Below, one piece after another: positions 27,065 through 62,685 of a stretch of 64,000 bases of DNA (position 1 is the first letter of the stretch; the number at the start of each line of letters is the position of its first letter). The notes beneath the pieces are model-generated. The model searched no databases, was not told the origin of the DNA, and was given only the letters and a program-made list of their open reading frames with translations. Origin of the DNA: an uncultured Actinomycetes bacterium (GTDB taxonomy: Bacteria > Actinomycetota > Coriobacteriia > Anaerosomatales > CAWKMJ01); contig CAWKMJ010000002.1 in NCBI GenBank assembly GCA_963850695.1, positions 78,810 through 142,809 on the forward strand, written 5' to 3'. A program made the position numbers and the translations under genes.

Positions 27065-27082
27065 AGGGAGGTAGATAGACGC

Positions 27083-28294
<1,212 letters not shown>

Positions 28295-37260: not shown

Positions 37261-38289
37261 GCGATACCGGTCCGCGTAGCGCGTCGTCGGCTTCGGATAC
37301 TGGGGCCCGAACCTGGTCCGGAACCTCGACCAAGCTCGCGGATGCCGACCTCGAAGTGGTGTGTGACCTCTCCGCAGGACAATCTGGCCAAGGTCCACGC
37401 AGCTGTACCCGGACGTCGAGACGACGACGATCTCGACGGCGTGCTTGCGCGACGATGACATCGACGCGGTGGTCGTCGCCACGTCGGCGCCGAGCCACTT
37501 CGCGATCGCCGAGCAAGGTCATCGCCGCAGGCAAGCACTGCTTCGTCGAGAAGCCGCTCACGCTCACGTCCGCCGACGCGGAGGCGCTCGTCACTCGGCC
37601 AGACGAGGCGCGGGCGTCGTGCTCATGGTCGGCCACCTCATGGAGTATCACACCGGCATCAACTGGGTGCGCGACTGCATCGCCTCGGGCGAGCTGGGCG
37701 ACGTGCTCTACGTCTACATGCAGCGGCTCAACCTGGGCAAGGTGCGGACCGAGGAGAACGCCTTCTGGTCGCTGGCTCCGCACGACGTCTCGATCGTCCT
37801 CTACCTCCTCGGCGAGACGCCCGACAGCGTCTCGGCCAGCGGGGCGGACTACCTCACAAACGGTGTGCAGGACGTCGTCTTCGCCAACCTCCACTTCCCG
37901 AGCGGGAAGATGGCCAACATCCATGTGTCGTGGCTCGACCCGCACAAGGTGCGCAAGCTCACCGTCGTCGGCAGCAAGAAGATGCTCGTCTTCGACGACA
38001 TGCAGGCCACCGAGAAGATCTGGATCTACGACAAGGGCGTCGGCGCGCCGGAGGGCGCGCTCGGCTACGGCGAGGACCTCTCGCTGCGCTTCGGCGACAT
38101 CCGGGTCCCGTTCGTCAAGATGGAGGAGCCGCTCGCGCTCGAGGTCCAGCACTTCCTCGACTGCTGTCGCAGCGGCGAGACGCCGCGCAGCGATGGCCGC
38201 GACGGCCTCGATGTCGTGCGCGTGCTCGAGGCCGTCGACGAGTCCATGGCTGCCGAGCGGCAGCGCCCGTGGACATCGAGGTGGAGTAG
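37257..38289 (+). CDS. Gfo/Idh/MocA-family NAD-dependent oxidoreductase (WbpB-like 3-dehydrogenase), about five frame changes
   Basis: [43 protein letters not shown] (EKP motif). Long C-terminal alpha/beta domain [27 protein letters not shown]. Confidence 0.8.
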
Positions 38290-38293
38290 GTCT

Positions 38294-39080
38294 ATGGCCG
38301 AGCAGGACCGCAGCATAGGCGACCTTCACACGCGGCGAAGGCGTGGTCATCGCGACAGATGCGGTGATCGGGTCGTACGTCGCGATCGGTGATCACGTGG
38401 TGATCGAGGCAGGTGTCGTCATCGGCGACGGCGCGGTCATCGGCAACCACGTCACGATCGGCCCGGGCGCACGCCTGGGCGCGGGCGTGCGTGTCTCCGA
38501 CTTCGCTCTCGTCGGCAAGATGCCCGCGCTCTCCAAGCGCTCCACCGCCAAGAGGGAGCCGCTCGACGGCGTCGTGATCGGCGACGAGACCTCCATCGGC
38601 AGCCACACGATGCTCATGGCCGGCACGATCGTCGGCACGCGGCTGCATCGTCGGCGACGGCGCTGGTGTGCGCGAGCGGTGTGTGATCGGGGACGACAGT
38701 GTCGTCGGCCGAGCAGTGACCGTCGAGAACGACACCACGATCGGTGCGCGCGTCGAAGATCCAGTCCGGCGCCTACATCACCGCGTACGTGCACGCTCGA
38801 AGACGATGTCTTCATCGCGCCCATGGTCGTCACGACCAACGACAACTACATGGGCCGCACCGAGAAGCGCCACGATGAGATCGCCGGATGCACGATCCGT
38901 CGCGGTGCCCGGGTCGGCGGCGGGGCGCATATCCTTCCCGGCGTCGAGATCGGCGAGGAGGCGTTCGTGGCCACGGCGGCGGTCGTGACCGGGATGTGCC
39001 GCCGCGCTCGGTCGTCATGGGCGTTCCGGCCAAGGTCGATCAGGACTGTCGCCGACGAGGAGCTGCTCGAGAACCAGTAG
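38294..39080 (+). CDS. Left-handed beta-helix (hexapeptide) N-acetyltransferase (WbpD-like), about three frame changes
   Basis: ATG 38294. Hexapeptide run [43 protein letters not shown] and later [26 protein letters not shown]. Confidence 0.75.
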
Positions 39081-39178
39081 AGGTCCGCGTGACGGGTCGG
39101 TGACGAGTCCGCACGCGGCGCGTCGCATACGGGAGCATAGTCCGAACGACCCGATCACGATAGAGAAGAGGATGCCGC

Positions 39179-40296
39179 ATGGGCGTGCCCCTGCTCGATC
39201 TCAAAGCACAGTACCAGGAGCTCAAGGACGAGCTCGACGCGGCTGTGTTCGACGTGATGTCGAACGCCGCGTTCATCGGCGGGCCCAAGGTCCAGGAGCT
39301 CTCTGAGGCGATCGCCGAGTACTGCGGCACGCAGCTACGCCGTCCCGTGCGGCAAGCGGCACCGACGCGCTCTTCCTGATCCTGGCGGCGATGGGCATCG
39401 GCAAGGGTGACGAGGTCATCACCACGCCGTTCACGTTCTTCGCGACCGCCGAGGCGATCGCGCATGTGGGCGCGACGCCGGTCTTCGTCGATATCGAGCC
39501 GGGCACGTACAACATGGACGTGACCAAGATCGAGGCCGCCATCACCGACCAGACCAAGGCGATCATGCCGGTGCACATCTTCGGCCAGTGCGTCGACATG
39601 GATGCGCTGCAACGCGATCGCCGCAGAAGCATGGTCTCAAGGTCATCGAGGACGCCTGCCAGGCGATCGGTGCCACGTACAAGGGCGCGCACGGCGGGCT
39701 CGCTCGGCCGATGCGGCGGCGTTCTCCTTCTTCCCGAGCAAGAACCTGGGCTGTGCCGGCGACGGCGGCATCATCACCACCGACGACGAGGAGCTTGCCG
39801 CGGCGGCGCGCAAGCTCGCGAACCACGGCACGAGCAAGAAGTACTTCCACGACACCCTCGGCGTGAACTCGCGGCTCGACGCGCTCCAGGCGGCGATCCT
39901 GCTGGTCAAGCTTCCGCATCTGGACCGCTGGAACGCAGAGCGCCGGGCCGCCGCAGCCGTCTACGACGAGCTGCTGGCCGACGTCGCACTCGAGCTTCCG
40001 GTGGCGCGCGATCGGCGAGTCCGTCTATCACCTCTACATCGTCAAGGCCGACTCCGCCGAGCAGGCCGACGACGTCATGGCCGCGCTCAAGGAGGCCGGC
40101 ATCGGCACCGCGAAGTACTACCCGCTCGCCTTGCACGAGCAGGAGGTCTTCGCATCCGAGGACGGCTACGTGATGCCCTCGCTGCCGGTGGCCGAGTCAT
40201 GTGACGGCCGCACGTTCGCCATACCGGCGTTCCCGGGCATCACACGTGAGCAGCAGGAAGAGGTCGCATCCGTCGTGAGGGCCGCGCTGCTCGTGA
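39179..40296 (+). CDS. DegT/DnrJ/EryC1-family PLP-dependent sugar aminotransferase (WbpE-like), about five frame changes
   Basis: ATG 39179 after [75 protein letters not shown] (PLP Lys), [10 protein letters not shown]. Stop overlaps the next start (GTGA at 40293..40296). Confidence 0.85.
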
Positions 40297-41391
40297 AGCG
40301 GCTTACCGTCATATCGGTCGTCGGGGCGCGGCCGCAGTTCATCAAGGCGGCCCCGGTCTGCCGCGCGCTGCGCGAGGGCCACGATGAGATCCTCGTCCAC
40401 TCCGGGCAGCACTACGACTACGAGATGTCCGACGTCTTCTTCGAGCAGCTCGGCATCCCCAAGCCGGACTACAATCTCGCCGTCGGCTCGGGCAGCTCAT
40501 GCCCGTCAGACCGGCGAGATGATGCCGATGCTCGAGGAGCTCTTCGATGAGAAGAGTCCCGACCTCGTGCTGGTCTACGGCGACACGAACACGACGCTCG
40601 CCGGCGGGTCTCGCTGCCGCCAAGCTCGACGATCCCGGTCGCGCACGTCGAGGCGGGCCTGCGCTGCTTCAACCGAGCGATGCCCGAGGAGATCAACCGG
40701 GTCGTCGTCGACCACCTCTCCGAGCTGCTGCTCTGTCCCACGCGACCGCGGCTGTCGCGAACCTCAAGGCCGAGGGCATCATGCAGCGGCGTCCACCTCG
40801 TGGGCGATGTCATGCTCGACACCGCGCGCTTCTTCGCCGAGAGCGTGGACCCTGACCGAGACACTCGCTGAGTTCGGCCTGGGTGCCGGGCGAGTACTAC
40901 TTCGCAACAGTCCATCGCGCCGGCAACAGCGACGACCCGGCGCGTCTCGAGTCGATCGTCCGGGCGTTCTCGCGGCTGGATCACCCGGTGCGTGTGGGCC
41001 GTGCACCCGCGCACCCAGCACGAACCTGGAGCTCCTTCGGCCTGACCGAGATGGTCGAGAAGGCCGAGAACATCCTGCCGGTCCCGCCCGTCTCATACAT
41101 GGAGACCGTCGCGCTGCTCAGCAGCGTCGGCAGGCCTGCTCACCGACTCGGGCGGGATGCAGAAGGAGGCCTACTTCTTCGGCGTGCCGTGCGTGACGCT
41201 GCGGGAGGAGACCGAGTGGGTCGAAACGGTCGAACTGGGCTGGAACGCGCTTGTCGGCTCGGACGAGGAGAAGATCGTTGTCGCTGCGGGCGGTGTCATC
41301 GCGGCCGGGCGAGCGCCCCGACGTGTACGGGGACGGCCACGCGGCTGAAGCTATCGTGAGGGCTATCGAAGAGGAGTTCCGACTGGTATAG
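40293..41391 (+). CDS. Non-hydrolysing UDP-N-acetylhexosamine 2-epimerase (WecB/WbpI-like), about six frame changes
   Basis: [94 protein letters not shown]. Stop 41389..41391. Confidence 0.85.
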
Positions 41392-41449: not shown

Positions 41450-42901
41450 ATGGGAAAACACTCAGCCAAGAGGCTCGGCCTGCAAGCCGAAGGAAGTCAA
41501 GACCGCGCGCAAGCCGGCGGCCGATGCGCCACGAGCCGTCGAGCTCCAAGCGTTCGCGGCGGCGCGGGGCGCTCGAGGAATCTCCCGAGCTGCCCGTGCA
41601 TCGCGACCGCCGGCGCGTCGCAGCTCAAGAAGGCGCTGGCCATCGCTGGCGTCGTGCTGCTCGCTGCCGTGATCGGCGCGGCTGCATGGAGCTACGTGTT
41701 CGTGCTGCGCGTCGAGGCCGAGATGCAGGACGACTTCGTGGCTCAGACAGATGAGGCTGCCGAACGCCGTGACGGAGCCGGCGCCGCCAGGCGAGCCGGT
41801 GACGATACTCCTACTCGGGAGCGATATCCGGCCCGAAGGAGGAGGCCGCACGGGCCGACACCATCATCGTGGCCCGCTTCGACCCTGAGACCAAGAAGAC
41901 GCTGCTCGTCTCGATCCCGCGCGACACGCGCGTGGAGATCCCTGGTCACGGTGTGGGCAAGATCAACACCGCCAACTACCTGGGCGGTCCGGCGCTCATG
42001 ATCGAGACTGTCGAGGACCTCCTGGACATCTCGGTCAATCACTACATGGAGATCGACTTCAAGGGCTTCGTCGGCATCGTGGATGCTCTCGGCGGGGTCT
42101 ACGTCGACGTGGACGCCGAGATCGACGACTGGGACGCTTCGAGCCACAGCCCGAGCCATCGCGCCAGCTCACATCGACCCCGGCTACCAGCTGCTCGACG
42201 GGGAGTATGCGCTGACATACGTCCGCAGCCGCGACTTCCCGGATGCGGACTTCACGCGCATGCGGCATCAGCAGGAGTTCTTCAGAGCACTTGCGAAGCA
42301 GTCGACGCGATTCGAGAACGTCTTCAAGATGCCTGCGGCTATCAGCGAGTTCGCCAAGGCCACGACGACCGACCTCGGCGTGTCCGAGATCCTCGGTCTC
42401 GTGCAACTCGGCCCGCGGTATCGATGAGGAGAACATCCAGACGGCCACGCTGAGCGGTGAGTGGCAGAGTCCGTACGTCTATCCCGACGAGGAGCTCATC
42501 GTTCAGCTCGGCACCGCCCTGCGCGAGGGCGGGGACATCGAGGAGGGCGCCACGAGCCGAAGAGGGCGGAGAGGTTTCGCTCGATCCCGCCACCGTCGAG
42601 GTCGACATCCGCAACGGCGCGGGGACCGTGGGCATCGCGTCCGAGGCCTCCGACGTCCTGGGCGCCGAGGGATTCACCGGTCGTTGAGATCGGCAACGCC
42701 AACCAGTTCGTCTACGACGAGACGCTCGTCGTCTACCGCGAGGACCAGCCTCGCGCTGAGGCGGTCGCCAGCGCCCTGCCGGTGGCCAAGGTGATTCCCA
42801 GCCGAGGGATGTACGCCTTCGAGTCCGACGTCCTGGTCGTGATAGGCAAGGACTGGCCCATCGGCTACAAGCCCGGCGACCCCAAGCCGGCGGAGGAGTA
42901 G
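41450..42901 (+). CDS. LytR-CpsA-Psr (LCP) family glycopolymer-peptidoglycan phosphotransferase with C-terminal LytR_C domain, about six frame changes
   Basis: N-terminal TM (LAIAGVVLLAAVIGAAAW). ADTIIVARFDPETKKTLLVSIPRDTRVEIPG, ISVNHYMEIDFKGFVGIVDALGGV, EYALTYVRSRDFPDADFTRMRHQQEF. C-terminal VEVDIRNGAGTVGIASEA...VVEIGNA. Confidence 0.85.
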
Positions 42902-42984
42902 TGCACTCGCGGGCCTGCTCGCGATCGCGGGCGCGACCTCAGACCTCAGGAAGCCAGTCGAGACACAGTCCGGATCTTCCTGCG

Positions 42985-44211
42985 CTAGCTCTCGCTCGCC
43001 GCATCTTCTAGCACGCCGAGGACGCGCGCGGCCATGTCGTCGCGGCCGAACTCGCGCTCGGCCAGGGCGCGGGCGTTGTCACCCATGCGTCGCAGCGCCT
43101 CGGGGTCATCGGCCAGCGCGACGATCGCATCCGCGAGCGCCTCACCGTCGCCCGGTGGCACGTAGACACCAGCGTCGTTGTCCTCGATCAGATCCTTGGT
43201 CCAGCCAGGGGAGTTGACGAGCATCGGCTTGCCGGTCGCGATCCCGTCGAAGAGCTTGTTGGGTGAGTTCGTGTAGAGGATCTCGACGTCCTTGAACAGC
43301 GTCATGAGCATGTCCGCGCTCCGCAGCAGCCGTGGGATCTCCTTCTTGGGGAGAGGGCCGATGAGATCGAGGTTGTCGAGGCCCCGCTCGTCACGCATGC
43401 GCTCGATCTGCGGCAGGGACTTCCCGTCACCCGCGATGAGGAAGACGATGTCGTCTCGGCCACGCTCTTTGAGGATGCGTGCGGCCTGGGGCACGGAGTC
43501 CTCGAGAGCGTTCGAGGGACCGATGGCGCCAGCGTAGCCCACGACGAACTTGCCCTCGAGCCCGAAGCGCTCGACGAGCTCCGGGTCCTTGGGGCCCGGG
43601 GCGAACAGCTCGAGATCGCACGAGTTGGGGACCATGTGCGTGCGCTCGGGGTCGCCGCCGTCGGCTAGGACGCCCGTGACCATGCCGGGGGAGAGCGCGA
43701 TCACAGCCGAGGCATGCCGATAGAGGAAGCGCTCGACTCGCTTGGCCACACGCGCGATGAAGCTGCCGCGCTTGAGAGCCCCCATCTGTATCGCCGCCTC
43801 AGGCCACAGATCGCGGACCTCGAAGACGAAGGGCAGTCTGCGCAGTGCGGCTGTGATCCAGCCGGGGACTCCGACCGTGAGCGGTGTGGAAGTCGCGAAG
43901 ACGACATCGGGGCGCGGGGCTCTGAGACCGAGGTACGCCGCGCCGAGCATGAACAGCGAGAAGGACCAGATGCGGCGAGCGTAGCCCATGTAGTTCGAGT
44001 ACGTGACCCGGACGGCCCGGACATCGATGCCGTCGACGGTACCGTAGTTGAAGACGTGCTCGGAGAACTCGTCGGTGAGCCGGGAGCTGCTCGTCACGAT
44101 CGTGACCTGGTGACCCTGTTCCACCCAGCGGCGAGAGAACTCGTATGAACGGATGAGTCCCAGCGACGACTCATGGGTGGCGAAGAACTGATGGAAGTAG
44201 AGGATTCTCAC
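42985..44211 (-). CDS. GT4-family glycosyltransferase (intact 408 aa)
   Basis: MRILYFHQFF...; N-terminal GT4 acceptor domain and C-terminal donor domain with LIAGDGK, NSPNKLFDGIATGKPML (E/K-x7-E-type region). Confidence 0.85.
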   Translation of the reverse strand: MRILYFHQFFATHESSLGLIRSYEFSRRWVEQGHQVTIVTSSSRLTDEFSEHVFNYGTVDGIDVRAVRVTYSNYMGYARRIWSFSLFMLGAAYLGLRAPRPDVVFATSTPLTVGVPGWITAALRRLPFVFEVRDLWPEAAIQMGALKRGSFIARVAKRVERFLYRHASAVIALSPGMVTGVLADGGDPERTHMVPNSCDLELFAPGPKDPELVERFGLEGKFVVGYAGAIGPSNALEDSVPQAARILKERGRDDIVFLIAGDGKSLPQIERMRDERGLDNLDLIGPLPKKEIPRLLRSADMLMTLFKDVEILYTNSPNKLFDGIATGKPMLVNSPGWTKDLIEDNDAGVYVPPGDGEALADAIVALADDPEALRRMGDNARALAEREFGRDDMAARVLGVLEDAASES

Positions 44212-44408
44212 GCGGTCGGGGTCTCCCAGCCGATGCGTCGTGCCTGGCAGTGATATGCGTCACACATCTCGTGCGCAAACATGCCGAATTCTACCATTGA
44301 GACGCACGTGGGGGCGTGTGCCGTGTGGCGCTCTACCCACTTCCCGGCGTGTCTTGTCCGGATGACTCAGCGGTGGCCTGCGGGAGGCCTGAGACAGGAG
44401 GGTTCGCC

Positions 44409-46184
44409 ATGGATAGACCTGGGGGTTCCACGCACGGCAGATCGGCGAGGGGGTTCGCACTTCTTCTCGTAATCATCTTGCTCGCTCTCGCGCTTCCGGT
44501 GTCCGCGGTCGGCACGGAGCCTGCGACGGTCACGCCGTACAACATCTCCGGCACGGTCGTCACCGACGACGCGAGTTCCACGCCGATTCCCGACATCAAG
44601 GTGAAGCTGTACTACGACAGCACGATCGTCGGCGGGGATCCGTCCTACATCTACACCTACACCGATGACGCTGGAGAGTGGGGTTTCGCCGACCTCGACG
44701 CCGGCAACTACGTCGTCTACTTCTACGACCCCAACTACAAGGACGGGGCCTACAAGAACGAGTACTACGACGACAAGGATGACTACGCGACCGCCGACCG
44801 CGTTGCATACGACGGCGGTACCAACGTGACCGGCGTCGATGCCGCGCTCACCGAGCTTCGGCGGGCCGTTGAAGGAACGGTCAAGTCCGAAGGTGGCGAA
44901 GGCATCAAGGACATGAAGGTCAAGCTCTACAAGTACACCGGCGGCACGACCGGTGACGCCTCCGTGCAGTGTGTCGGTTGGAGTGAGGTACAGGGTGCCT
45001 ACACCGACGCAAGCGGCTGGTATGCGTTCTACGGTGAGGAAGCCGGTCTCTATCGTGTGGGCGCCTACGACCCGAGGGACAATCACTACACCAAGTTCTA
45101 CGATGAGAAGCCCACACTCGATGATGCCACCGACATCTCCTACGATGGCACAGCCACCGTCTCGGGGATCGACCTGGCGCTCGAGCTCAAGACCAAAGAG
45201 GTCTGGGACAAGGACCGCTACACGACCGCGATCGACATCGCGCGCGAGGCCTACCCAGGCTGGCACGGTATCGACACGATCATCATCGCCTCTGGTGAGG
45301 ATCGCGCCTCGGCAGATCCTCTCGCCGCCTCCGGGATGTGCTGGGCCTATGACGCTCCGCTGTTCCTCGTGAGCAAGGATGGCCCGCCGTATGCGGTCAA
45401 GGAAGCGATCGCCGAGATCGTCGACGTGAACGGTCCCATCGACATGATCGTCGTTGGCGGACCCAAGTCCGTGCCCGACTGGGTGGCGGACAAGATCGAG
45501 AGCTACGTGGAGGGCAAGTTCGGTGGCGCTGACGTCATCACCGGCCCCGGCGGCACCTGGCGCCGCGTCGAAGGTCAGGACCGCTATGAGGTGGCCTACA
45601 AGATCGCCGACGAGATGGCGACCTGTGGCAAGTGGATGCCCGATGATGCGCTGATCGCGAACGGCGCAGACGCGAGCAAGTTCTTCGATGCTCTCGCGCT
45701 CTCGCCCGTCGCGCGCCGCAGGGGCGCACCGGTCCTGCTCGTGAGCAAGGACAAGGTGCCCAGCTGGACATCGGCGGCGATCGACAAGCACGGACTGAAC
45801 GACCTCTGGGTCGCTGGCGGAGACAACTCCGTTGGCCCCAAGGCCAAGGCCAAGCTCGGCGAGCTTGGGACCGTTCGCGCGGTATGGGCGGGCAAGGACC
45901 GCTATGAGACCGCTCGTCTGGTCGCCGAGGGCGCGCTCGATCAGGGCTGGCTCTCCAAGGATGCCGTGGCTGTCGCAGCCAAGCTGCCGGACGCCCTCAC
46001 GGGTGGTAGCGTGGTCGGGCATCGCAACGGTGTTCTGCTGCTTGTCGAGACGGACAAGTTGCCGAATCCCACGGGTGGGTATCTGGAGAACAACAAGGCA
46101 TCCATCGATGAGTGCTACATTTTTGGTGGACCGAAGAGCGTGAGCGCCAAGACTCGCGCCGCAGTCGAAGAGAAGCTGAAGTGA
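44409..46184 (+). CDS. Secreted wall protein: signal peptide, two ~100-aa beta-sandwich repeats (carboxypeptidase-regulatory/Cna-B-like), three CWB2-type wall-binding repeats (intact)
   Basis: ATG 44409 after AGGAGGG. FALLLVIILLALALPVSAVG. ISGTVVTDD...DAGNYVVYFY and EGTVKSEGG...EAGLYRVGAY. CWB2 units DKDRYTTAIDIAREAY...[14 protein letters not shown]...YDAPLFLVS...IVVGGPKSV; GQDRYEVAYKIA...ANGADASKFFDALALSP...APVLLVS; GKDRYETARLVA...AKLPDALTGGS...GVLLLV...IFGGPKSVS. Confidence 0.8.
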   Translation: MDRPGGSTHGRSARGFALLLVIILLALALPVSAVGTEPATVTPYNISGTVVTDDASSTPIPDIKVKLYYDSTIVGGDPSYIYTYTDDAGEWGFADLDAGNYVVYFYDPNYKDGAYKNEYYDDKDDYATADRVAYDGGTNVTGVDAALTELRRAVEGTVKSEGGEGIKDMKVKLYKYTGGTTGDASVQCVGWSEVQGAYTDASGWYAFYGEEAGLYRVGAYDPRDNHYTKFYDEKPTLDDATDISYDGTATVSGIDLALELKTKEVWDKDRYTTAIDIAREAYPGWHGIDTIIIASGEDRASADPLAASGMCWAYDAPLFLVSKDGPPYAVKEAIAEIVDVNGPIDMIVVGGPKSVPDWVADKIESYVEGKFGGADVITGPGGTWRRVEGQDRYEVAYKIADEMATCGKWMPDDALIANGADASKFFDALALSPVARRRGAPVLLVSKDKVPSWTSAAIDKHGLNDLWVAGGDNSVGPKAKAKLGELGTVRAVWAGKDRYETARLVAEGALDQGWLSKDAVAVAAKLPDALTGGSVVGHRNGVLLLVETDKLPNPTGGYLENNKASIDECYIFGGPKSVSAKTRAAVEEKLK

Positions 46185-46862
46185 CCGAAGGCGAACATAC
46201 CGACGACAGAACCCAGAAGCGGGGCGCGCAGAGCGTGCCCCGCTTCATCGTGGTCCTGGGCATAGTGGGGGTCGTGGCACTCGTCGCTGCGCTCGTTGCC
46301 GTCGTCGTCATGCAGGGTACGGGCTCTACTACTCAGACGTCGGTGGATGGGGCGGCTGAAGAGAGCAGCAGTGGGCCGGGAGCAGACGACTCCGGTGGAA
46401 CCGGTGCCGCAGAGGAGACGACTGGTGTGGGTGTCGGGCCGGGCGGTCCCTCTGCCGCCGAGCTGGCTGCGCAGTCCGCAGGTGATCTCGGCGCTCCCGC
46501 TGAGCTTTGCGGCGAGGGCGTGGAGCTGCCGGTTCTCGACGCGCCGCCCCCGTCCACGCTCGGACTGGTTGCACTGCCGGCGGGCTTCGAGGTCGCCGAG
46601 CTCGATGTCACCTTCTCTCCCTACGGTTGGGGCCAAGGCGGACCGGAGGGCTGCAACCTCGTGATCACGCGTCGCCACGGCGAAGCCCGCTTCCGGCGAC
46701 ACCGAGGGCTTGGAGGACATCTCCGGCATGAACGTGAGCGTGTGGACGGAGTGCGCACACGACGAGATTCTCAAGACAGGTGGCCAGTTCGCAGGTACAG
46801 TTGAGGTGCGCCGTCAGGGCAACGTCGGGCTTCTGTACCTGACAGAACTCTCGCGCAGCTGA
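46181..46862 (+). CDS. Single-pass membrane protein of unknown function, start coupled to the upstream stop (GTGA); one frame change near 46665
   Basis: GTG 46181. TM FIVVLGIVGVVALVAALVAVVV, Gly/Ser/Glu-rich linker, small C-terminal domain ...GMNVSVWTECAHDEILKTGGQFAGTVEVRRQGNVGLLYLTELSRS. Confidence 0.55.
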
Positions 46863-46867
46863 GTCAG

Positions 46868-46907
46868 CCCCCGCACCGGTTCTTCTGGCACGGTTCGTGC
46901 GGGGTTT
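46868..46907 (+). terminator. Rho-independent-type terminator hairpin
   Basis: CCCCGCAC...GTGCGGGG (8 bp, with inner ACCG/CGGT pairing) followed by TTT, 6 nt after the stop at 46862. Confidence 0.5.
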
Positions 46908-46976
46908 CAGTCGTCACGACCTCGTACCGATGTACTAGGGGATGGAAGCACTCCTCAAAAGGAGATAGAGAGCCGT

Positions 46977-49916
46977 ATGCGCATGGTCAGATTCGCCGTT
47001 TCGCTCGCCGTGGTCGTCGCGCTCGCGGCGACGATGACTCCGCTGGTCGCAGGTGGCGCCAAGGCGCAGAACAGCGTCGAGATCGAGCGTGTTTCACAGT
47101 CCGCCACACTCGACACGCGTCTCATCAGCTTGGAGGAGCGGGCCGACCTGGCGCGAAGCGAGGGCGAGCCGCTCCTGGCCGCCACCCCATCCGAGCCTTC
47201 CGACAGCCAGCCCGACTACGTGGCTGGCGAGGTACTTGTGAAGTACCGGGACCAGGACGCGCTCTCAGCCACCGTCCAGTCGCGCCTCCACGATCGCGCA
47301 GGTGGGACTCCTGGTGAGACGGTCGGCTCCGATGCCGACCGTACAGGTCGTGGAGCTCGACGGCGACGTCTCGGTCGAGGAAGGCGTCGACGCCTACGAG
47401 GCACAGCCCGAGGTCGAGTGGGCACAGCCCAACTACCTCTACGCACTCGCCGACACCACTCCTGGCGACACGATGTTCGGCTGGCTGGATGGCCAGCACA
47501 ACATCGGGCAGACCGGCGGCACCTCGGATGCCGACATCGACACCCCGGGGGCTTGGGACCTCGAGACAGGTGACGCGAGTGTGGTCGTCGCGGTCATCGA
47601 CACGGGAATCGACCCGACGCACCCCGACCTCGTCGGGCAACATCTGGTCGAACACCGGGGAGATCCCCGACAACAGCATCGACGACGACGTCAACGGCTA
47701 CGTGGACGACACGTACGGCTGGGACTTCGTCAACGACGACAACGCGCCGCATGGACGACCACAGCCACGGCACGCATGTCGCCGGGACGATAGGGGCTGT
47801 CGGCAACGACGGGCGTGGAGTGGCAGGCGTGGCATGGGACGTCTCGATCATGCCGATCAAGGCGCTTCGACCAGAACGGGAACAAGGCCAGTTCGGCGGC
47901 GCTCGTGGACGCTATCGACTACGCGAGCGACAACGGGGCGGACGTCATCAACGCGTCGTGGGGCGACTACGGACCGGTGGACACCGCGATCCGCAGCGCG
48001 ATCGCCTCGTCGCCAGCGCTGTTCGTGGCAGCAGCCGGGCAATCAACAGCCTGGCGAACAACGACGATGCACACCCGTTCTACCCGGCCGCCTACGACCT
48101 GGACAACATCATCGCTGTCGCCGCGACCGACAACAAGGACGCTCTCGCCAGCTTCTCGAACTACGGGGCGACGACAGTCGATGTGGCGGCTCCCGGCGTG
48201 GACATCCTCAGCACGGTGCCGCGCCTCGGCTACAGCGGGCAGTCGTTGGCCGATCCCGGCTGGGGAGACATCTTCTACGATCCGTTCCCCACCCAGGGTG
48301 GTTGGGCGACGACCGACTACAAGCACAAGCCATGGTCGCTGACCTCGACCAAGCCCGGCTCGTACTCCGGAGTGCCCGCGATCGCCAACAGGAACTACTC
48401 GGCGACCGAAGAGGCCTACCTCGACCTGAAGTACCCGGTAGACCTCTCTCAGTCCTCGGCTGCTGGCATCCTCTTCGACTTGGCGGCAAGCTTGGAGCCG
48501 GGATATGACTTCCTCGTCCCGATCGCTTCTGATGATGGAGGCAGTACCTGGGACCCGATCGAGAACGTCGCGTACACCGGAAGCACCGCGTCGGTGAAGC
48601 GGCTGGCCGACAACGATCGCTTCACGACAGCGGTCAAGATAGCGCGCGAGGGATACGACCCGGCCGGCAACAAGACGTGGCCCGGCGTCGACTCTGTGAT
48701 CATCGCGTCCGGCGATGACCGCGCGGCCGCAGACCCGCTGTCGGCTGCGGGGCTGTGCTGGGCCTACGACGCCCCGCTCTTCCTCGTCTCGGCATCGACG
48801 ACACCGGTCAAAGTGAAGGCCGCGATCAAGGAGATCGCAGCCCGCAACAGCGGCAAGGTGAACGTCATCATCGTCGGAGGCACGGTGAGCGTGCCCGACG
48901 CGCGCTACAGCGACCTCGCGAACTACGTGGGATGGAGCGAGCTTGCCAGACGACGCGTGGCGGGGTCGGACCGGTACTCCACGGCCGCAGCGATCGCTCG
49001 GGAGATGAGACGCGTGAAGGGCGCGACGGACAAGGTGCTCGTCGCCAACGGAGCCGACTCCACGAAGTTCTTCGACGCGCTCGCGCTCTCGCCGATCGCG
49101 GCACGCAACGGCTATCCGATCATCCCGGTGAGCGCCACGTCGGTTCCCTCGGCGAGCAGGTCGATACTGAGCGAGTTCGACCCGAGCGAGGTCATCATCG
49201 GCGGGGGACCGGCCACGGTGAAGTCGAGCGTCAAGAGCAGCATCAAGAGCATCACCGGCGTCACACCACAGCAGTGGTACGGACCCGATCGCTACTACAC
49301 CGCGACGACGATCGCGACGAAGTCGGTGTCCCGCGGATTCCTTTCGGATCAGGCGGTCGGGATCGCAGCCAAGCTGCCCGACGCGCTGACCGGTGGAAGC
49401 ATGATCGGCGCGCAGAACGGCGTGCTGCTCATCACACAGAGCGATCGGCTGACCGGGACGACGAGCGCCTGGGTGTCCTCGCACTCATCCAAGATCGGAT
49501 CGGCCTACGTCTTTGGTGGCACGAAGAGCGTGTACCCAGCCGTCCAGAATCGAGTGACAGGGCTCGTGGCGCTCTGGGTGACTGAGTACTTGAACCTGAA
49601 GGACTACATCGGCAAGGCGAGCGTCAAGATCGCGTTCGTGCTGGTCTCAGATGAGACGGACAACTACGACGGCGTCTTCATAGACGACGTCGAGATCGTC
49701 TCCTTCGGGGGCTACGGGCTCAACAACGGGACATCCATGGCGGCACCGCATGTGGCCGGAGTGGCGGCGCTGCTCAAGTCGCGCGACGCGAGTCTCGAGG
49801 CGACTGAGACCAAGCAGGTCATCATCGATACGGTCGACACGAAGTCGAGTCTTGCTGGAAAGGTGGAATCCGGCGGACGTGTGAATGCGAACAGCGCGGT
49901 GACTGCTGTACCCTAG
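46977..49916 (+). CDS. Secreted subtilisin-family (S8) serine protease with a nested jelly-roll plus 3x CWB2 insertion between the His/Asn region and the catalytic Ser; about five frame changes confined to 47290-48060
   Basis: Signal peptide MRMVRFAVSLAVVVALAATMTPLVAGGAKA. Inhibitor-I9-like propeptide YVAGEVLVKYRD...VEWAQPNYLY. Asp VVVAVIDTGID, His DDHSHGTHVAGTIG, DVINASWG, FSNYGATTVDVAAPG, then about 490 aa (SDDGGSTWDP..., three CWB2 units, ...YDGVFIDDVEIV) before Ser NNGTSMAAPHVAGVAALL. Confidence 0.85.
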
Positions 49917-49955
49917 AGCGGAAGTCACCCGTGACGCGAGGGGGTAGATGGCAAA

Positions 49956-51648
49956 GTGAGACACGCAAAGCCGCTCGTGGCGTGCGTTCTGGCGGCGGCG
50001 CTGCTGCTGTCGATGCCGGTATCGATCGGTGCCGTGACGTGGCCGGATGGCTCCCCCAAGGTCAAGGTTGCGCGCGACCGTGTCTACGGCTCGGACCGCT
50101 ACGCAACCTCAGTCAAGATCGCGGCTGCGGCGTTTCCTGGTTGGGCAGGCGTCGACCACGTGATCATCGCCTCGGGCGAGGATCGTGCCGCGGCCGACCC
50201 GCTGACCGCTGCCTCTCTCTGCTGGGCGTATGACGCCCCGCTGCTGCTCACTCAGTCCAAGACCCTTCCCTCGTCGGTTCGCTCGACGCTCAAGGAGATC
50301 GCCGCGGTCAATCCCGGCGTCAAGGTGATCATCGTCGGCGGCGGAGTCTCGGTGCCGCGGTCGCTCGAGAAGGAGATCAAGTCCGCCATCGGGCCGAGCG
50401 GAGCAGTCGAGCGCCCATGGGCCTCAGGAGACCGCTTCTCGCTTGCGGCAGGTATCGCGTCGCGAGTGAGGCAGGTCGCTGCCGATACGAGCCGCACGAT
50501 ACCGAGCGCCGTGCTCGTGGCCAACGGTGCCGATGTCGATACGTTCTTCGACGCGCTCTCGGCCTCGGCCGTCTCGGCCAACACCGGCGTGCCGGTGCTG
50601 CTTGCAGGCCGAGATGAAGTGCCGGCGGTCACCGCCACGTACATCAAGGCGACGGCTCCCGCTGAGACCATTCTGGTGGGTGGCCCCACGACCATGTCCT
50701 GGGATGTCCAGCGCAAGCTCCCCGGGACCGAGCGTCTCCACGGCGCCGACCGCTACGCGACGTCTATCGCCGTGGCGGAGGCGGCCGATGCCCGCGGGTG
50801 GGCCGATCCGGCGACCACGTGTCTTGCCGGCGCGCTTCCCGATGCGGTCTCAGGAGCGATCCTCGCCGCCAAGAACAGCGGCCCTCTCGTCATCGTCCCC
50901 AAGGACACGCTGCGCGGTTCCATCGCGAACTACCTGGCCAGCGATTCGATCGGCGTGACGAAGGCCATCGTCCTCGGAGGCTCGGCAAGCGTGTCGAACG
51001 GGCTCTACGGTGAGCTCGGAGGCAACCCCGGCATCCCGCAGATCACCTCGTTCAAGAACGTGGCCACGAAGAGAGCTCCCATGAAGGCCAGGGCGGGCGT
51101 GAACACCACGACGCTCAAGCTCTACGTGGACGGCAAGTACGTCGCCACCAAGTCGGCCAAGCCCTACACCGAGGTGGACTTCGGCAAGGTCTGGCTCGCC
51201 AAGGACATGACCGAGGTCAAGATCGTCGCCAGCAACCCTGATGACGCGACATCGACGATGAAGCGCAAGGTGAAGCGGCTCGACTACCCGGCATCGACCA
51301 GCATCGTGATCGACAAGTCGGACTTCAAGCTCTACTGGATCAAGAACGATGTTCTCGTGAAGGCCTACCCGATCGCCCACGGGCGAGTCGGCGCCAGCAC
51401 GCCGGAGCGCACCTGGAAGATCGGCGCCAAGTACCACAGCAGCGGAGTGTACGGTCCGCGCAAGATGCGGCTGTTCGCCAAGTCCGGCTCTGGCTACACG
51501 TACTCGCGCCTACCTCATCCACGGCACGAACCAGGAGTGGGTCATCGGCACGCGCGCCTCGGCGGGTTGCATCCGCATGTACAACAAGGACGTACTCGAG
51601 CTGTTCCCGCAGGTACCGCTGGGTACACCGGTGGTGACGCGCCAGTAG
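49956..51648 (+). CDS. Secreted L,D-transpeptidase (YkuD domain) with N-terminal 3x CWB2 module and a middle beta-domain; one frame change near 51500
   Basis: GTG 49956. Signal peptide [23 protein letters not shown]2 units [12 protein letters not shown]...[14 protein letters not shown]...YDAPLLLT; [12 protein letters not shown]...[16 protein letters not shown]...VPVLLAG; [12 protein letters not shown]...[11 protein letters not shown]...GPLVIV. C-terminus [27 protein letters not shown]...[29 protein letters not shown]. Stop 51646..51648. Confidence 0.85.
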
Positions 51649-51776
51649 CCATGACCCCGGGGGTCGCTTTCCCCGTGATGACCTGAGTTACCATGGCACC
51701 TGGCCTCGCCGATACTGGAAGGCTGTCAACGGTGGTGAATCGTAGCAGTACGTCGCAGCAGTACCGCCTGAAGGCG

Positions 51777-53423
51777 ATGCGCATGTCCTTGGCGCTCGTT
51801 CTCGCTCTCCCCATCCTTCTCGCGCTCCCTGCTCTTGCGTGCGCAGAACCCATCAAGCCCGCGGCCCTGCGCATCACGATCGATCCCGGTCACGGTGGTG
51901 GCTACTCGGGAGCCGTCTACGGCGGCACCTCCGAGAAGGCGCTCAACCTCCAGATCGCCAAGAGGCTCGCCACCGAGCTCAAGCGTCGGGGTCACAGAGT
52001 CGACATGACGCGCTGGACCGACTCGTATGTCTACTCCGGCGGCACGGTGCCCACATGGCGCTGGGTCGACTCGCTCGATCGCTACAAGTACGACAGCTGG
52101 CCCGTGAACACCGCCACCGACCGGCTGCGCCGCGATCTCCAGTCGCGCTGCGATCGCGCCAACGCCAACGGGGCCGACCTCTTCGTCTCGATCCACAACA
52201 ACGCTGGCGGCAGCGCCTCCGGTGCCGAGACATACCGGGCGCCGCAGGACCCGCTCGGCCAGAGGTTCGCAAGCGATGTGCAGGCCGAGCTCATCTCGGA
52301 GACCGGTGCCCGCAGCAGAGGCGTGTTCGCCGAGAACTTCTACGTCATCCGCTGGTCGAACATGCCGGCCGTGCTCGTGGAGTGCGGCTTCATGTCCAAC
52401 TCCTCCGAGCTCTCCCGGCTGCGTTCGAGCTCGTATCAGGCGACGGTCGCCCGCGGCATCGCTGATGGCATCGACCGGTTCGCCAAACGCGAGTTCGACG
52501 AGTCCTTCGACCGGATATGGGGTGCCGATCGCTACTCCACAGCTGCTCAAGTGGCGCGCTCGGGCTGGGCTACGCCGACCGTCGCGTTCTTGTCCTCTGG
52601 GGAGACGTTCGCCGATAGCCTGGTCGCCGGTCCCTACGCGACTCAGCTCGACGCTCCGATCCTGCTCACGGCGGCTGGCCATCTCCCTGGGCCGACGGCG
52701 AGCGCGCTCAAGGATCTTGCGCCCGACCGAATCGTCGTCGTGGGGGGTCCGCGTTCGGTCCCCGACGCCATCGCACGCCAGGCAGCCCAGGCCGCCGGCA
52801 TCGATCCGGCCGCTCCGGGCGCGATCACGCGCTTTGGTGGGAGCACCCGCTACGACGTGGCGCTCGCCATCGCCGAGGAGATGGGGATCGCCGATGACGC
52901 ACCTGTCATCGTCGCATCCGGCGAGGTCTTCCCCGACGCGCTCAGCATCTCGGCATATGCGGCCGAGAACGCCCAGCCGATTCTGCTCGTGAGCTCGAAG
53001 AAGATGTCGGGGGGCATCCGCTCCTACATCTCGCGGGGCGAGCGCGACATGACCGTGGTGGGTGGCCCGGCCACCATCCCGGAGCAGGTGCTCGACGGTT
53101 TCGAGTACGAGCGTCTGGCCGGCTCCAATCGGTACTCGACGAACTGGGCCGTCTTCGCCAACAAGTACGAGGCCGAGGACCACGTCCGCCCGATGATCGC
53201 GTCGGCAGAAGTCTTCCCCGACGCACTGGTGCTCGGGCCGTATGCAGCCAAACAGGGACGCCCGATCATCCTCATGGGCAAGTCCGCCTGCTCCACGAGT
53301 CTCAGGCCCTGGGTCTACAACAACCGGGAGGCCGAGCTCGATGTGGACGTGGTCGGAGGCCCCGCGTCGGTGTCGGCCTATGTTTCACAGATGTTCGAGA
53401 AGTGGCGGATGAACCAGCACTAG
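51777..53423 (+). CDS. Secreted N-acetylmuramoyl-L-alanine amidase (Amidase_3) with C-terminal 3x CWB2 module (intact; LytC-like but with reversed domain order)
   Basis: ATG 51777/51783. Signal peptide MSLALVLALPILLALPALACA. ITIDPGHGGGYSGA, ALNLQIAKRL, DLFVSIHNNAGG, YVIRWSNMPAVLVECGFMSN. CWB2 units GADRYSTAAQVA...SSGETFADSLVAGP...APILLT; GSTRYDVALAIA...ASGEVFPDALSIS...QPILLV; GSNRYSTNWAVF...SAEVFPDALVLGP...RPIILM. Confidence 0.88.
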   Translation: MRMSLALVLALPILLALPALACAEPIKPAALRITIDPGHGGGYSGAVYGGTSEKALNLQIAKRLATELKRRGHRVDMTRWTDSYVYSGGTVPTWRWVDSLDRYKYDSWPVNTATDRLRRDLQSRCDRANANGADLFVSIHNNAGGSASGAETYRAPQDPLGQRFASDVQAELISETGARSRGVFAENFYVIRWSNMPAVLVECGFMSNSSELSRLRSSSYQATVARGIADGIDRFAKREFDESFDRIWGADRYSTAAQVARSGWATPTVAFLSSGETFADSLVAGPYATQLDAPILLTAAGHLPGPTASALKDLAPDRIVVVGGPRSVPDAIARQAAQAAGIDPAAPGAITRFGGSTRYDVALAIAEEMGIADDAPVIVASGEVFPDALSISAYAAENAQPILLVSSKKMSGGIRSYISRGERDMTVVGGPATIPEQVLDGFEYERLAGSNRYSTNWAVFANKYEAEDHVRPMIASAEVFPDALVLGPYAAKQGRPIILMGKSACSTSLRPWVYNNREAELDVDVVGGPASVSAYVSQMFEKWRMNQH

Positions 53424-53441
53424 GGAACCGCGCGACCCTCG

Positions 53442-54677
53442 CTACTCGATGACCGATTCGTAGACCTCGGCAACGCGCTCCGTCGTGCGTCCAAGATCGT
53501 ACTCTTCCGCTCGTGCTGCTCCCACCTCGATGAGCCGAGCGGCGAACTCGGGCTCGGTGAGGACTCGGGTGATCGCACGGCCGAGCGCTGCCACGTCCCC
53601 CGGATCCACGAGCTCGCCCGCGCCGCCGCGCAGCAGGTTGGGGATCCCGCCGATGCACGAGGCCACGACGGGCGTGCCGGATGCCAGTGCCTCGATGATC
53701 GAGCGCGGCTGACCCTCTCGCAGATGAGAGGGGAGCACGAAGACATCGGCCGAGGAGAGCGTGTCGACGACACCATCGGGTCCCAGGTCGCCGAGAAGCT
53801 CGCAGGATCCCGCGTCGAGCCCTGCTTCCCGCGCAAGCGATTCGACGTCGAGATCGACGACGGGGCCAGCCAGCACGAGATGGGCGTTGGGTACGCTGGC
53901 AAGGACGGACACCATGGCCCGTAGCAGGTCCTCGACGCCCTTGCCAGCAGCGATGCGCCCGATGTAGGCGACTGTGGCCGGGCTCGATCCCGTTGCTGCG
54001 GACCCGCGGCTCTCGACATCGGAGGTCGACCGCATCGCAGCGCCGAACCGCCCCAGATCCACGCCGTTGGGTATCACCGTGGGCTCGAGGCCGGGGACGC
54101 GCGCGGACAGCCCATCGGCGACATCCGTGCTCACCGCTATGACAGCGTCCATCTCGGCCAGGTTCTCGATCACCAAGTCGCCGAGTGCTTGTGGCGCGTC
54201 GTCGGCGAACGCGGAGAGGCTGTGCTGGGTCGCCACGCTCGGCAGCGAGGTGATGCCGGCCATGCGGCCGTAGAGCACGCGCATGTCGGGTTGGTGGTAG
54301 TGGACGACGTCGGGTCGGTGGCCCTGGACGGCTCGCGACAACCCGAGCACCTGGGCGAACGTGGGCCCGAACCGCTTGTCCTGCGCCTCGGCCAGCCCCA
54401 TGAGCGACCGCGTGCTGCTCACCAGGGAAGCGTTGCCAAGAGCCGCCATCGCCCCGCCGAGTGACTTCGACAGCGGTGTCGCCGAGTAGACATCGCCCCA
54501 CTCCTCGGCGATCGGCTCGTCGGTCGGAGGCATGTTGTCCGCGTAGACTGCGACGTCGTGGCCTGCCGAGGAGAGTCCCTCGGCGAGCTCGAGAACGTGG
54601 GTGGCGATACCGCCGGTGCTGCGTGAGCCCATGTGTCCGGGAAGCGGACCGACGATCAGGATGCGTCGCGCGCTCAC
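53442..54677 (-). CDS. GT4-family glycosyltransferase (intact 411 aa)
   Basis: MSARRILIVGPLPGHMGSRSTGGIATHVLELAEGL...; C-terminal LVLAGPV..., LPSHLREGQPRSIIEALASGTPVVAS (E-x7-E region). Lies 7 nt downstream of wzx on the same strand. Confidence 0.85.
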   Translation of the reverse strand: MSARRILIVGPLPGHMGSRSTGGIATHVLELAEGLSSAGHDVAVYADNMPPTDEPIAEEWGDVYSATPLSKSLGGAMAALGNASLVSSTRSLMGLAEAQDKRFGPTFAQVLGLSRAVQGHRPDVVHYHQPDMRVLYGRMAGITSLPSVATQHSLSAFADDAPQALGDLVIENLAEMDAVIAVSTDVADGLSARVPGLEPTVIPNGVDLGRFGAAMRSTSDVESRGSAATGSSPATVAYIGRIAAGKGVEDLLRAMVSVLASVPNAHLVLAGPVVDLDVESLAREAGLDAGSCELLGDLGPDGVVDTLSSADVFVLPSHLREGQPRSIIEALASGTPVVASCIGGIPNLLRGGAGELVDPGDVAALGRAITRVLTEPEFAARLIEVGAARAEEYDLGRTTERVAEVYESVIE

Positions 54678-54684: not shown

Positions 54685-56352
54685 TCACTCCCCGGGTTGA
54701 GGCGGGTCGGACTCGGGCGGAAGCTCGGTCTCGCTCGGCTCCTCGGCGTGCTCGTCGCTGGCGGCGCGCGTGGGGTGCTTCATGCGGCGCGTGAGGCCCG
54801 CGACGATCTCGCGGGCGTAGTGCAGCTCGTCGCGACGGACTCCACCGAGCAGCAGCAGCGCGATGATGTAGACCGTCAGCCCGACGAAGACGGCTGCGAC
54901 GAGCAGCAGCATCGGGTGGGCGGTGACGTAGCTCGCCAGACTCAGCACGGCGGCCATGATGAGCGAGGCGGCCGTGATGCGCAGCAGCGCGTTCCACGGG
55001 ACGAGCCAGGGCATGTAGGCGCGGCTCCTGAACCAGGTGAGGGCCAGGAGCAGGAAGTAGGAGAGCACAGTCGTCACACCGGCGGCGGCGTACCCGTACT
55101 CGGGGATCAGCACGGCGTTCGCCCCGATGTTGAAGGCCGCTGCAAGCAGCGTGTTCTGCATGATGATCTGCGACTTCTTGTGAAGCCCGAGGCCGGTGCC
55201 TGCCAGCTGCGCGAACCCGGAGAACATGGCGGCGGCGGCCACGAACGGCAGCACGACCGCTGCGGGCCAGTACTCGGACGCGGTGAACGCTCGCATGAAG
55301 AGCCCGGATGTGGCAGCCATGCCGGCCAGCAGCGGGAAGGTCACCATCGCCGCGTAGCGCGTGAACTGCGACTGGACCTTCTCGGCCATCGCTTGAGTGC
55401 GCTTCTCGTAGGTCTCCATGAGCACGGGCGTCATCGTCATGATGAGCGGGAGCGTGACGAGCTGCATGAGCTTCTCGCCGAGTCCATAGGCCACCGAGTA
55501 GAGGCCGACCTCGGTCGCTCCGCGGAAGAACTGGATCATGTATCGGTCAGCCAGCACGAGCACCCAGGAAGAGACGCCCACAGGGATGAGCGGGACTCCG
55601 TAGGAGAGGAACTCGCCAAGCAGCGGACGGCTGTAGTTGCCGGGCGTGAGCGAGCCCTCACGGCTCACAGCTCGGAGCCCAAGCGGCAGCAGCACCAGGT
55701 TGCCGATGGCCACGCCGAGCAGGATGCCGAGCGATCCCATCTCCATCGGCCACACGAAGATGATCGAGAGGGTGGTCGTGAGCACGGTGTTGGCCACGGA
55801 CAGCTTGGCGAACGAGGAAGCGCGGTTGGCCGCGCGCAGCACCTGCAGCAACAGGCTCATGATGTAGTGGAAGAAGAAGTAGGCGATGCCGGCGGGCACG
55901 AGGCGGGCAAGCCCCTCCTCGATCTGGCCTTGGAGCAGCAGCGCACCGGCTGCAACGAGCACGCCTGCGCCCGTCAGCGCGACCAGCGCGCTCCACAGCA
56001 CCGTCGAGATGTACTCGTTGGTGCGCCCCTCCCTCTCGGTCGCCCAGTAGAAGCGCACCGCCGAAGAGGACAGCCATGCCGTGACGATGCTTGCCACGAA
56101 CGTGGCCGCCGAGGTGACGAGGTAGAAGTAGCCGTAGTCCTCCGCGCCGATCAGGCGCGTGAACAGCGGCACGGTGATCAGCGATGTGAGCGCCGGGATG
56201 AACCGGACGGGGAAGTACTTCAGGGCGTCGGAACCCGCGCCTCGAAGGATTCGTTTGAGGATGCTCTCGCCGAGGTCGCCGTCGTCAGCGCCCCTCTCGG
56301 CAGGTCTCTCCTCCTCGTGCCCCTGCTGTCCGGATGAACTCTCGGCCGCCAT
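54685..56352 (-). CDS. MOP-superfamily polysaccharide flippase (Wzx-like), intact 555 aa
   Basis: Acidic N-terminus, then about 14 hydrophobic segments (FIPALTSLITVPLFTRLIGAEDYGYFYLV ...). Typical oligosaccharide-flippase length and topology. Confidence 0.8.
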   Translation of the reverse strand: MAAESSSGQQGHEEERPAERGADDGDLGESILKRILRGAGSDALKYFPVRFIPALTSLITVPLFTRLIGAEDYGYFYLVTSAATFVASIVTAWLSSSAVRFYWATEREGRTNEYISTVLWSALVALTGAGVLVAAGALLLQGQIEEGLARLVPAGIAYFFFHYIMSLLLQVLRAANRASSFAKLSVANTVLTTTLSIIFVWPMEMGSLGILLGVAIGNLVLLPLGLRAVSREGSLTPGNYSRPLLGEFLSYGVPLIPVGVSSWVLVLADRYMIQFFRGATEVGLYSVAYGLGEKLMQLVTLPLIMTMTPVLMETYEKRTQAMAEKVQSQFTRYAAMVTFPLLAGMAATSGLFMRAFTASEYWPAAVVLPFVAAAAMFSGFAQLAGTGLGLHKKSQIIMQNTLLAAAFNIGANAVLIPEYGYAAAGVTTVLSYFLLLALTWFRSRAYMPWLVPWNALLRITAASLIMAAVLSLASYVTAHPMLLLVAAVFVGLTVYIIALLLLGGVRRDELHYAREIVAGLTRRMKHPTRAASDEHAEEPSETELPPESDPPQPGE

Positions 56353-62512: not shown

Positions 62513-62685
62513 ACACAAGAGCGGGTGTGCCGAGATGACGCGGCGAGATACGCGTCGGCGGCCCGTGACTTGCTTGAACAGCACGGTCCGGTGAAGTGAT
62601 CGGCGGGCGCAGCAACAGGGCCTGCGGCAACGCCAGCGCTGCTCAGTGGCGCATGTGCCCATGCGGGCGACAAAGGAGAGTCCAC

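Follow-up and report, generated by a model that had tools for sequence, protein, structure and literature searches.

The window, defined here as the whole 64-kb stretch of DNA that was analysed, contains four large co-directional genes and one small gene on the forward strand at 44409-53423. In gene order, the four large products are a protein with two beta-sandwich domains (the sandwich protein), a subtilase of family S8, a YkuD L,D-transpeptidase (LDT), and an Amidase_3 hydrolase, and each carries a triplet of CWB2 units. The genes probably form a conserved cluster of secreted, non-covalently wall-anchored proteins that lies within a glycopolymer biosynthesis locus, contains a nested S8 protease, and has its reading frames broken by read errors. 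In the S8 protease, a CWB2 block would have been placed into a loop of a MAM-like sandwich that itself sits within the S8 domain, giving a two-level nested protein. The locations of all features are listed in Table 1.

Two related metagenome contigs were used for comparison. The first, L001 (ENA), has 88-90% DNA identity to the window, keeps the gene order, and contains many frameshifts. The second, L002 (JGI), has approximately 80% DNA identity, also keeps the gene order, and has all genes intact. The cluster sits between polymer genes in the window, in L001, and in L002. The sandwich protein is the best conserved member of the cluster, with 91% amino acid identity to its L002 copy and a ratio of nonsynonymous to synonymous substitution rates (dN/dS) of 0.09. 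Across the sandwich protein, the LDT, and the GT4 gene, dN/dS is 0.08-0.09.

Three stretches that match Pfam CW_binding_2 (PF04122) occur in every large protein of the cluster, and the E-values over the entire protein are 7e-41 (sandwich protein), 8e-40 (S8), 4e-40 (LDT), and 5e-54 (amidase). A hidden Markov model (HMM) built from these 12 units recovered exactly the same 12 in the 64-kb window and no further units. The amidase triplet is collinear with the whole triplet of Clostridioides difficile Cwp6 (5J72 residues 135-400, E 6e-34), as is the S8 triplet (5J72 residues 130-408, E 2e-19, phmmer). Both triplets also match Cwp8 (5J6Q) and the high-molecular-weight subunit of SlpA (7ACX, 7ACY). 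An AlphaFold2 model was made of P0001, the intact S8 protein of L002, and has a predicted local distance difference test (pLDDT) score of 85-97 over the triplet (residues 540-862). In Foldseek, this model matches Cwp6 with an E-value of 3e-23, SlpA (7ACY_B) with a TM of 0.74 and a root-mean-square deviation (rmsd) of 2.9 A over 358 columns, and Cwp8 (5J6Q) with an rmsd of 2.7 A over 337 columns. The triplet is predicted to consist of three toprim-like domains packed as one trefoil. The original prediction, made from the letters of the window, had assigned the repeats to CWB2, and profile match, collinear match, and predicted fold all give CWB2 and not a different fold. The coordinates and domain orders that it gave for the four proteins are also correct, as is its description of the unit motif, including a divergent unit 1 in three proteins and three canonical units in the amidase.

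Features of a Sec-type signal peptide are present in all four large proteins. These are K/R residues, a 12-residue hydrophobic core with a mean Kyte-Doolittle value of 2.8-3.6, and small residues at -3/-1, as identified by a heuristic check and not by a trained predictor. All four proteins are probably exported by this route, and purine-rich stretches are found 5' of the start codons in all four large genes. The partner domains differ. Those of the sandwich protein are CarboxypepD_reg, SdrD_B, and SpaA-like sandwiches in Pfam, with no enzyme domain. The Amidase_3 domain (PF01520) is matched over profile positions 1-173 of 174 with an E-value of 3e-49 and 168 bits against a cutoff of 27. The LDT, once its frame is bridged (563 amino acids), covers positions 2-145 of 146 of the YkuD profile with an E-value of 4e-21, and its motif YLIHGT...SAGCIRM at 51511-51579 fits the YkuD (PF03734) pattern of (Y/L)xxHG(S/T) followed by SxGC(I/V)R(M/L) (PMC5842191). 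The enzymes are expected to act on the wall. The earlier description of the cluster as a wall-remodelling toolkit is overstated, since that function is read from the domains and the sandwich protein is no enzyme.

The triplets can be sorted into types using pairwise identities and a neighbour-joining tree of units in which the units of relatives were included. In the sandwich protein, S8, and LDT, unit 1 reads IIASG(E/D)DRA(A/S)ADPL...CWAYDAPL(F/L)L. All three units of the amidase carry F(A/P)D(A/S)L. In the tree, units 1, 2, and 3 of the sandwich protein, S8, and LDT each group by position, and the triplet shared by these three proteins is referred to here as type A. The C-terminal triplets of three relatives (P0008, P0010, and P0011) group with type A. 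The units of the amidase fall into a set of their own, and those of a 1175-amino-acid S8 family form a third. By sequence, the amidase type appears more similar to Cwp6 than type A is. Since the units cluster by position, it is the whole triplet and not the single repeat that would move, and the triplet seems to behave as one mobile block. The two sub-lineages proposed earlier are recovered as type A and the amidase type, with the exception that the sharing is not limited to unit 1; all three units are orthologous by position.

Pairwise comparison of the window triplets gives 30-47% amino acid identity and 44-56% codon-aligned nucleotide identity. Values of 71-80% between triplets are confined to local patches of approximately 100 nucleotides, so the nucleotide identity of approximately 75% first given for these sequences is wrong. 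The duplications appear to be older than that estimate implies. The view that they are old and not an assembly artefact is upheld by the 44-56% identity and by the presence of the same genes in two independent contigs.

The domain order of the S8 protein is S8-N, MAM-N, CWB2x3, MAM-C, and S8-C. When the frame is bridged, the protein is 975 amino acids in length and matches Peptidase_S8 with an E-value of 5e-57 and the NPro propeptide with an E-value of 2e-13. The motifs DTGID, HGTHVAG, AAAGN, and GTSMAAPHV are present in that order. The Asp, His, and oxyanion Asn motifs precede the triplet and the Ser motif follows it. The MAM-like sandwich interrupts the S8 domain between the oxyanion Asn and the catalytic Ser. 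The frameshifted fragment matches the InhA-like MAM family (PF20773) with 29.5 bits (cutoff 26.9) over profile positions 113-162 only. When the 329-residue insert is deleted in silico, a single MAM match extends across the junction and covers profile positions 53-162. P0001 scores 23.1 bits against PF20773, and relatives carry precomputed PF20773 matches. The original prediction had called this triplet internal. It is inside the enzyme as stated, and is in fact nested, splitting a MAM-like sandwich and leaving the catalytic Ser behind the triplet. The nesting at two levels and the flanking glycopolymer locus were both missed.

The nested order is shared by the window, P0001, and P0002. P0001 is an intact protein of 977 amino acids with 78% identity to the window protein, and P0002 has 975 amino acids and 77% identity. 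Both are full-length, lie in one uninterrupted frame, and come from other metagenomes. Alignment with P0008 and P0010 gives a permuted order in these relatives, namely S8-N, MAM, S8-C, and then CWB2x3. Every part of the nested S8 protein is under purifying selection, with dN/dS against L002 of 0.06-0.21 for the parts and 0.10 for the inserted triplet.

MAFFT could not fit the permuted relatives to both flanks of the insert at once, and two complementary models were therefore made (alignments A6 and A4). The C-terminal S8 piece was misplaced on the CWB2 region in alignments A2 and A5, A3 (split pieces) gave scattered fragments, and A4 misplaced a second MAM there. Model 2 is from the alignment that is deep over the pieces next to the insert. 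Its pLDDT is 81-92 over MAM-N, 86-95 over MAM-C, and 73-96 over S8-C, and its protease portion can be superposed on complete subtilisins over approximately 240 columns. Since each model is confident only in part, the two do not fix how trefoil, sandwich, and active site are placed relative to each other.

Nesting at two levels appears to be rare. A HMMER search of 1.84 billion representative proteins was made with a query composed of unit 3, MAM-C, and S8-C. Among the best 150 of 12,214 matches, only one cluster (P0002) crosses the junction in one stretch; in the other 149, the top-scoring stretch lies mostly on a single half. When GTDB species genomes were scanned with P0001, only distant S8 genes (Nitrospirota, Chloroflexia, and others) were recovered, with no close relative and no second nested case. 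Among the S8 relatives compared, a triplet inside the MAM loop occurs only in the window, L001, P0001, and P0002. If the reading is correct, this protein is a natural example of a 329-residue, three-domain module that has been moved from a C-terminal to an intradomain site with the host domains still foldable. Because the trefoil is held in a sandwich adjoining the active-site Ser, polymer binding could position or gate the protease so that cutting occurs only when it is docked on the wall, which would make the nesting functional and not just tolerated; this is a speculative idea to which little weight is given.

The S8 gene contains at least five frame changes between approximately 47290 and 48045, and the LDT gene contains one near 51510. 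Two other accounts of these genes were considered. Under one, S8 and LDT are true pseudogenes of this strain and the cluster is decaying. The number of frameshifts, at least five within 1.1 kb of S8 and one in the LDT, fits such a history, as does the heavily frameshifted S8 copy of L001. However, a three-way DNA alignment places the single-base indels of the window and of L001 at different S8 sites, and the bridged S8 and LDT frames have no internal in-frame stop codon. The frameshifted part of S8 has a dN/dS of 0.15 between the window and L001, against 0.12 in the remainder of the gene. Essential genes of the window are frameshifted at similar density; the housekeeping genes murA (33951-35286), atpB (27065-27960), hom, lysA, and argS, and the LytR-CpsA-Psr (LCP) gene, are also frame-broken, and approximately 49 putative frame switches were counted across the 64 kb. 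Decay was rejected as very unlikely on the independent indel positions, the low dN/dS, and the frameshifted housekeeping genes. Under the other account, a CWB2 gene and a protease gene were fused into the nested S8 only by chimeric assembly or faulty gene calling, for which the low accuracy of the window assembly might speak. The same order and junctions are nonetheless found in four independent sequences, namely the window, L001 (ENA), and two JGI contigs (L002/P0001 and P0002), the latter two without any break of frame. Both junctions also fall within one beta-sandwich that is restored when the insert is removed, and selection acts on all parts. A fusion of this kind is extremely improbable and was rejected on the four independent copies.

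The frameshifts in S8 and LDT thus appear to be read errors of a low-accuracy assembly, given the intact relatives, the differing indel sites, the low dN/dS, and the similarly broken housekeeping genes. The catalytic motifs of both enzymes are kept after bridging, in line with the original prediction. Several points weigh against the overall reading of the cluster. Frameshifts per kb are more numerous in the S8 region than across the window on average, which leaves a small chance that the gene is inactive in this strain. The MAM match obtained after removal of the insert scores 26.7 bits, just under the Pfam cutoff of 26.9. No one model is confident over all domains, model 1 being shallow at the C-terminal pieces and model 2 being misaligned in the CWB2 region. 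A promoter and terminator scan of 44150-53600 returned nothing beyond chance level, and the taxon placement given below is from one marker protein. The frameshifts stem from the assembly, and gene-level findings from the window need frameshift-aware translation. Frame-broken examples elsewhere in the window are at 5352-6616, 7992-8976, 27065-27960, 33951-35286, and 41450-42900.

The proposed mechanism begins with export of each of the four proteins by its Sec-type signal peptide. The three CWB2 units of a protein would then assemble as a single trefoil like that of the C. difficile Cwp proteins, and by analogy with those proteins the trefoil would bind non-covalently to an anionic glycopolymer linked to the wall. 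The likeliest ligand would be the polymer whose synthesis depends on the neighbouring glycosyltransferase, flippase, and polymerase genes, and which the adjacent LCP enzyme would attach to peptidoglycan. The anchor would hold all four proteins, including the Amidase_3 hydrolase, the YkuD enzyme, the subtilase, and the two-sandwich protein, at the wall.

Two rival views of the cluster differ in what the anchor serves. The cluster could be a unit for the biogenesis of an S-layer or surface coat, in which the sandwich protein is the main coat and the S8 protease matures it, as Cwp84, a cysteine protease, does for C. difficile SlpA. The sandwich gene is indeed the first in the cluster and the best conserved, its product has no enzyme domain, and a CWB2-anchored protease beside a CWB2 structural protein mirrors slpA and cwp84 (PMC5842191). 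Against this, the substrate of both the amidase and the LDT is peptidoglycan, which makes no less than half of the cluster wall-directed, and the paper on cultured Anaerosomatales does not use the term S-layer and reports pili-like appendages. We regard a coat function as unlikely, if worth keeping in mind. It could also be that the ligand of the trefoils is peptidoglycan or a polymer with its genes elsewhere, and that the glycopolymer genes are adjacent by coincidence. In favour of this view, a second set of sugar-modifying genes lies upstream at 36628-40868. The position of the cluster within polymer genes in all three contigs argues for the adjacent polymer, as does the sole tested CWB2 ligand, a wall polymer made by a locus next to the cwp genes (PMC5842191). 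Another ligand is therefore considered improbable, and the wall-anchored cluster with its adjoining polymer is preferred.

The C. difficile Cwp family is the closest known parallel. It comprises 29 CWB2 proteins, each with a signal peptide and three non-redundant CWB2 units that form a trefoil (PMC5842191; PMC5817068). The C. difficile CWB2 binds the wall polymer PSII, and the AP (PSII) locus adjoins the slpA/cwp locus (PMC5842191, PMC5817068). The likeness to the window extends from the signal peptide, the triplet trefoil, and the variable functional domain to the clustering of the genes near a polymer locus (PMC5842191). Cwp members with functions like those in the window are the proteases Cwp84 and Cwp13, the Amidase_3 proteins Cwp6, Cwp16, and Cwp17, and the YkuD protein Cwp22 (PMC5842191). 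Cwp triplets are N-terminal, C-terminal, or central and occur with protease, Amidase_3, and YkuD members, so the occurrence of the triplet at every possible position, as pointed out earlier for the window, was already known (PMC5842191). CWB2 has also been reported in Actinobacteria before (PMC5817068). The families differ in phylum, the host of the window being a member of Actinomycetota, Coriobacteriia, and in the protease, which is papain-like in the Cwp family and a serine S8 enzyme in the window. In Cwp6, the central triplet lies between two separate domains, whereas the S8 triplet of the window lies inside a domain that is inside another domain. One anchor type shared by many functions is thus known from the Cwp family, and the nested S8 is the new point.

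Other comparisons concern single enzymes. The amidase of the window has the reverse order of Bacillus subtilis LytC, in which the triplet is N-terminal and the amidase C-terminal. CwlB/LytC, in which CWB2 was first recognised, is otherwise alike in having an Amidase_3 domain and a CWB2 triplet by which it is kept on the wall (PMC5817068).

S8 proteases with an InhA-like MAM before the catalytic Ser are of the same clade as the window S8 and share its propeptide and MAM site. They include P0037 and P0043, cited as examples of approximately 700 amino acids, as well as P0008, P0010, P0011, and the 1175-amino-acid P0013-P0035. P0008, P0010, and P0011 have the same type-A triplet as the window S8. 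In all of these S8-MAM relatives the triplet, if any, follows the complete protease. P0013-P0035, of approximately 1175 amino acids, are widespread in metagenome-assembled genomes (MAGs) of Actinomycetota and contain two tandem MAM-like sandwiches inserted ahead of the catalytic Ser and one further domain, with the triplet, of the third sub-lineage, at the C-terminus. In C5a peptidase, lactocepin, and plant SBTs, a PA domain is inserted between the catalytic His and Ser with the triad preserved. In these PA-domain subtilases the insertion goes one level deep, the inserted fold differs, and a wall anchor is not involved.

If the preferred reading holds, the Cwp-type design of one anchor, many functions, and a place next to a polymer locus is extended to environmental Coriobacteriia, and the adjoining polymer locus offers a testable candidate ligand for the anchor. 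The nested subtilase would be a rare natural case of a domain in a domain in a domain, and it informs both the tolerance of large insertions and the engineering of wall-tethered enzymes.

Table 1. Location of the cluster genes, the parts of the S8 protein, and the flanking genes in the window.
Feature	Coordinates	Strand	Description
LytR-CpsA-Psr (LCP) ligase gene	41450-42900	+	Over three frames (read errors); PF03816 E 9e-27 on the 41869-42453 fragment
GT4 glycosyltransferase	42985-44211	-	Divergent from cluster; Glyco_trans_4_4 and Glycos_transf_1 matches
Sandwich protein	44409-46184	+	Signal peptide, two CarboxypepD_reg/SdrD_B-like sandwiches, C-terminal type-A triplet 45195-46181
Small conserved protein	46253-46862	+	One N-terminal membrane helix; one frameshift near 46690
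S8-N	46977-48221	+	Signal peptide, Fervidolysin-type propeptide, catalytic Asp 47587-47613, His 47766-47786, oxyanion Asn ~48022-48047; at least 5 single-base/short indels
MAM-N	48222-48584	+	N-terminal half of MAM-like beta-sandwich; aligns with MAM region of P0008, P0010, P0037, P0043
S8 type-A triplet, 329 amino acids	48585-49571	+	In 'YTGS|...' loop of MAM-like sandwich; dN/dS 0.10
MAM-C	49572-49712	+	C-terminal half of MAM-like sandwich; PF20773 profile positions 113-162
S8-C	49713-49916	+	Catalytic Ser motif GTSMAAPHV 49728-49754
L,D-transpeptidase (LDT)	49956-51648	+	Signal peptide, N-terminal type-A triplet 50076-51035, spacer, YkuD ~51297-51645
N-acetylmuramoyl-L-alanine amidase	51777-53423	+	Signal peptide, Amidase_3 ~51873-52475, C-terminal triplet of second sub-lineage 52509-53417
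GT4 glycosyltransferase	53442-54677	-	Convergent on cluster
Polysacc_synt (Wzx-type) flippase	54685-56352	-	Convergent on cluster

The small gene of the cluster separates the sandwich gene from that of the protease. Its product has a Ser/Gly/Thr-rich stretch and matched no Pfam family. The gene is syntenic in L001 (226 amino acids) and L002 (198 amino acids), with 64-70% identity.

The genes on both sides of the cluster belong to the putative glycopolymer locus. LCP enzymes join wall glycopolymers to peptidoglycan, and an intact LCP of 365 amino acids is found at the corresponding place in L001. The upstream GT4 glycosyltransferase has 88% amino acid identity to its L002 copy and a dN/dS of 0.09. 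Further GT4 genes lie downstream of the flippase in the window. In L001, the GT4 and flippase genes are also present and are followed by glycosyltransferase and Wzy_C-like genes; an Epimerase_2 gene is present as well.

An extra S8-MAM protease of 978 amino acids with a C-terminal type-A triplet (P0010) is located in L001 at 2328-5264, between the LCP and GT4 genes. The window has no counterpart of P0010 at 42902-42978. P0010 is a non-nested counterpart of the nested S8 protein, and a possible source of its triplet.

At 25789-26658 and 36628-40868, 5' of the cluster, are further genes whose products, as read from their translations only, comprise a WecA/MraY-like transferase and four sugar enzymes (UDP-sugar dehydrogenase, Gfo/Idh/MocA oxidoreductase, DegT-type aminotransferase, and UDP-GlcNAc 2-epimerase). 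This gene content suggests a wall polymer that contains an amino sugar or ManNAc. A BNR_4 repeat protein (sialidase-like beta-propeller family) lies 3' of the glycosyltransferase genes at 62578-64000; a frameshift interrupts its gene, which continues beyond the end of the window.

The host is probably an uncultured environmental member of the Coriobacteriia near Anaerosomatales/OPB41. The best named matches of the window AtpD are Coriobacteriia MAGs and strain M08DHB (92%), and the G+C content of the window is approximately 66%. M08DHB, the type strain of Anaerosoma in the Anaerosomatales (formerly OPB41), has a Gram-positive wall and a G+C content of 66.6% (PMC9686372). Both an S8-CWB2 protein (P0023) and an AtpD with 92% identity to that of the window are encoded by a MAG that bears the label 'Clostridiales bacterium' (contig of 384,707 bp). 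This MAG is probably a mislabelled member of the Coriobacteriia.

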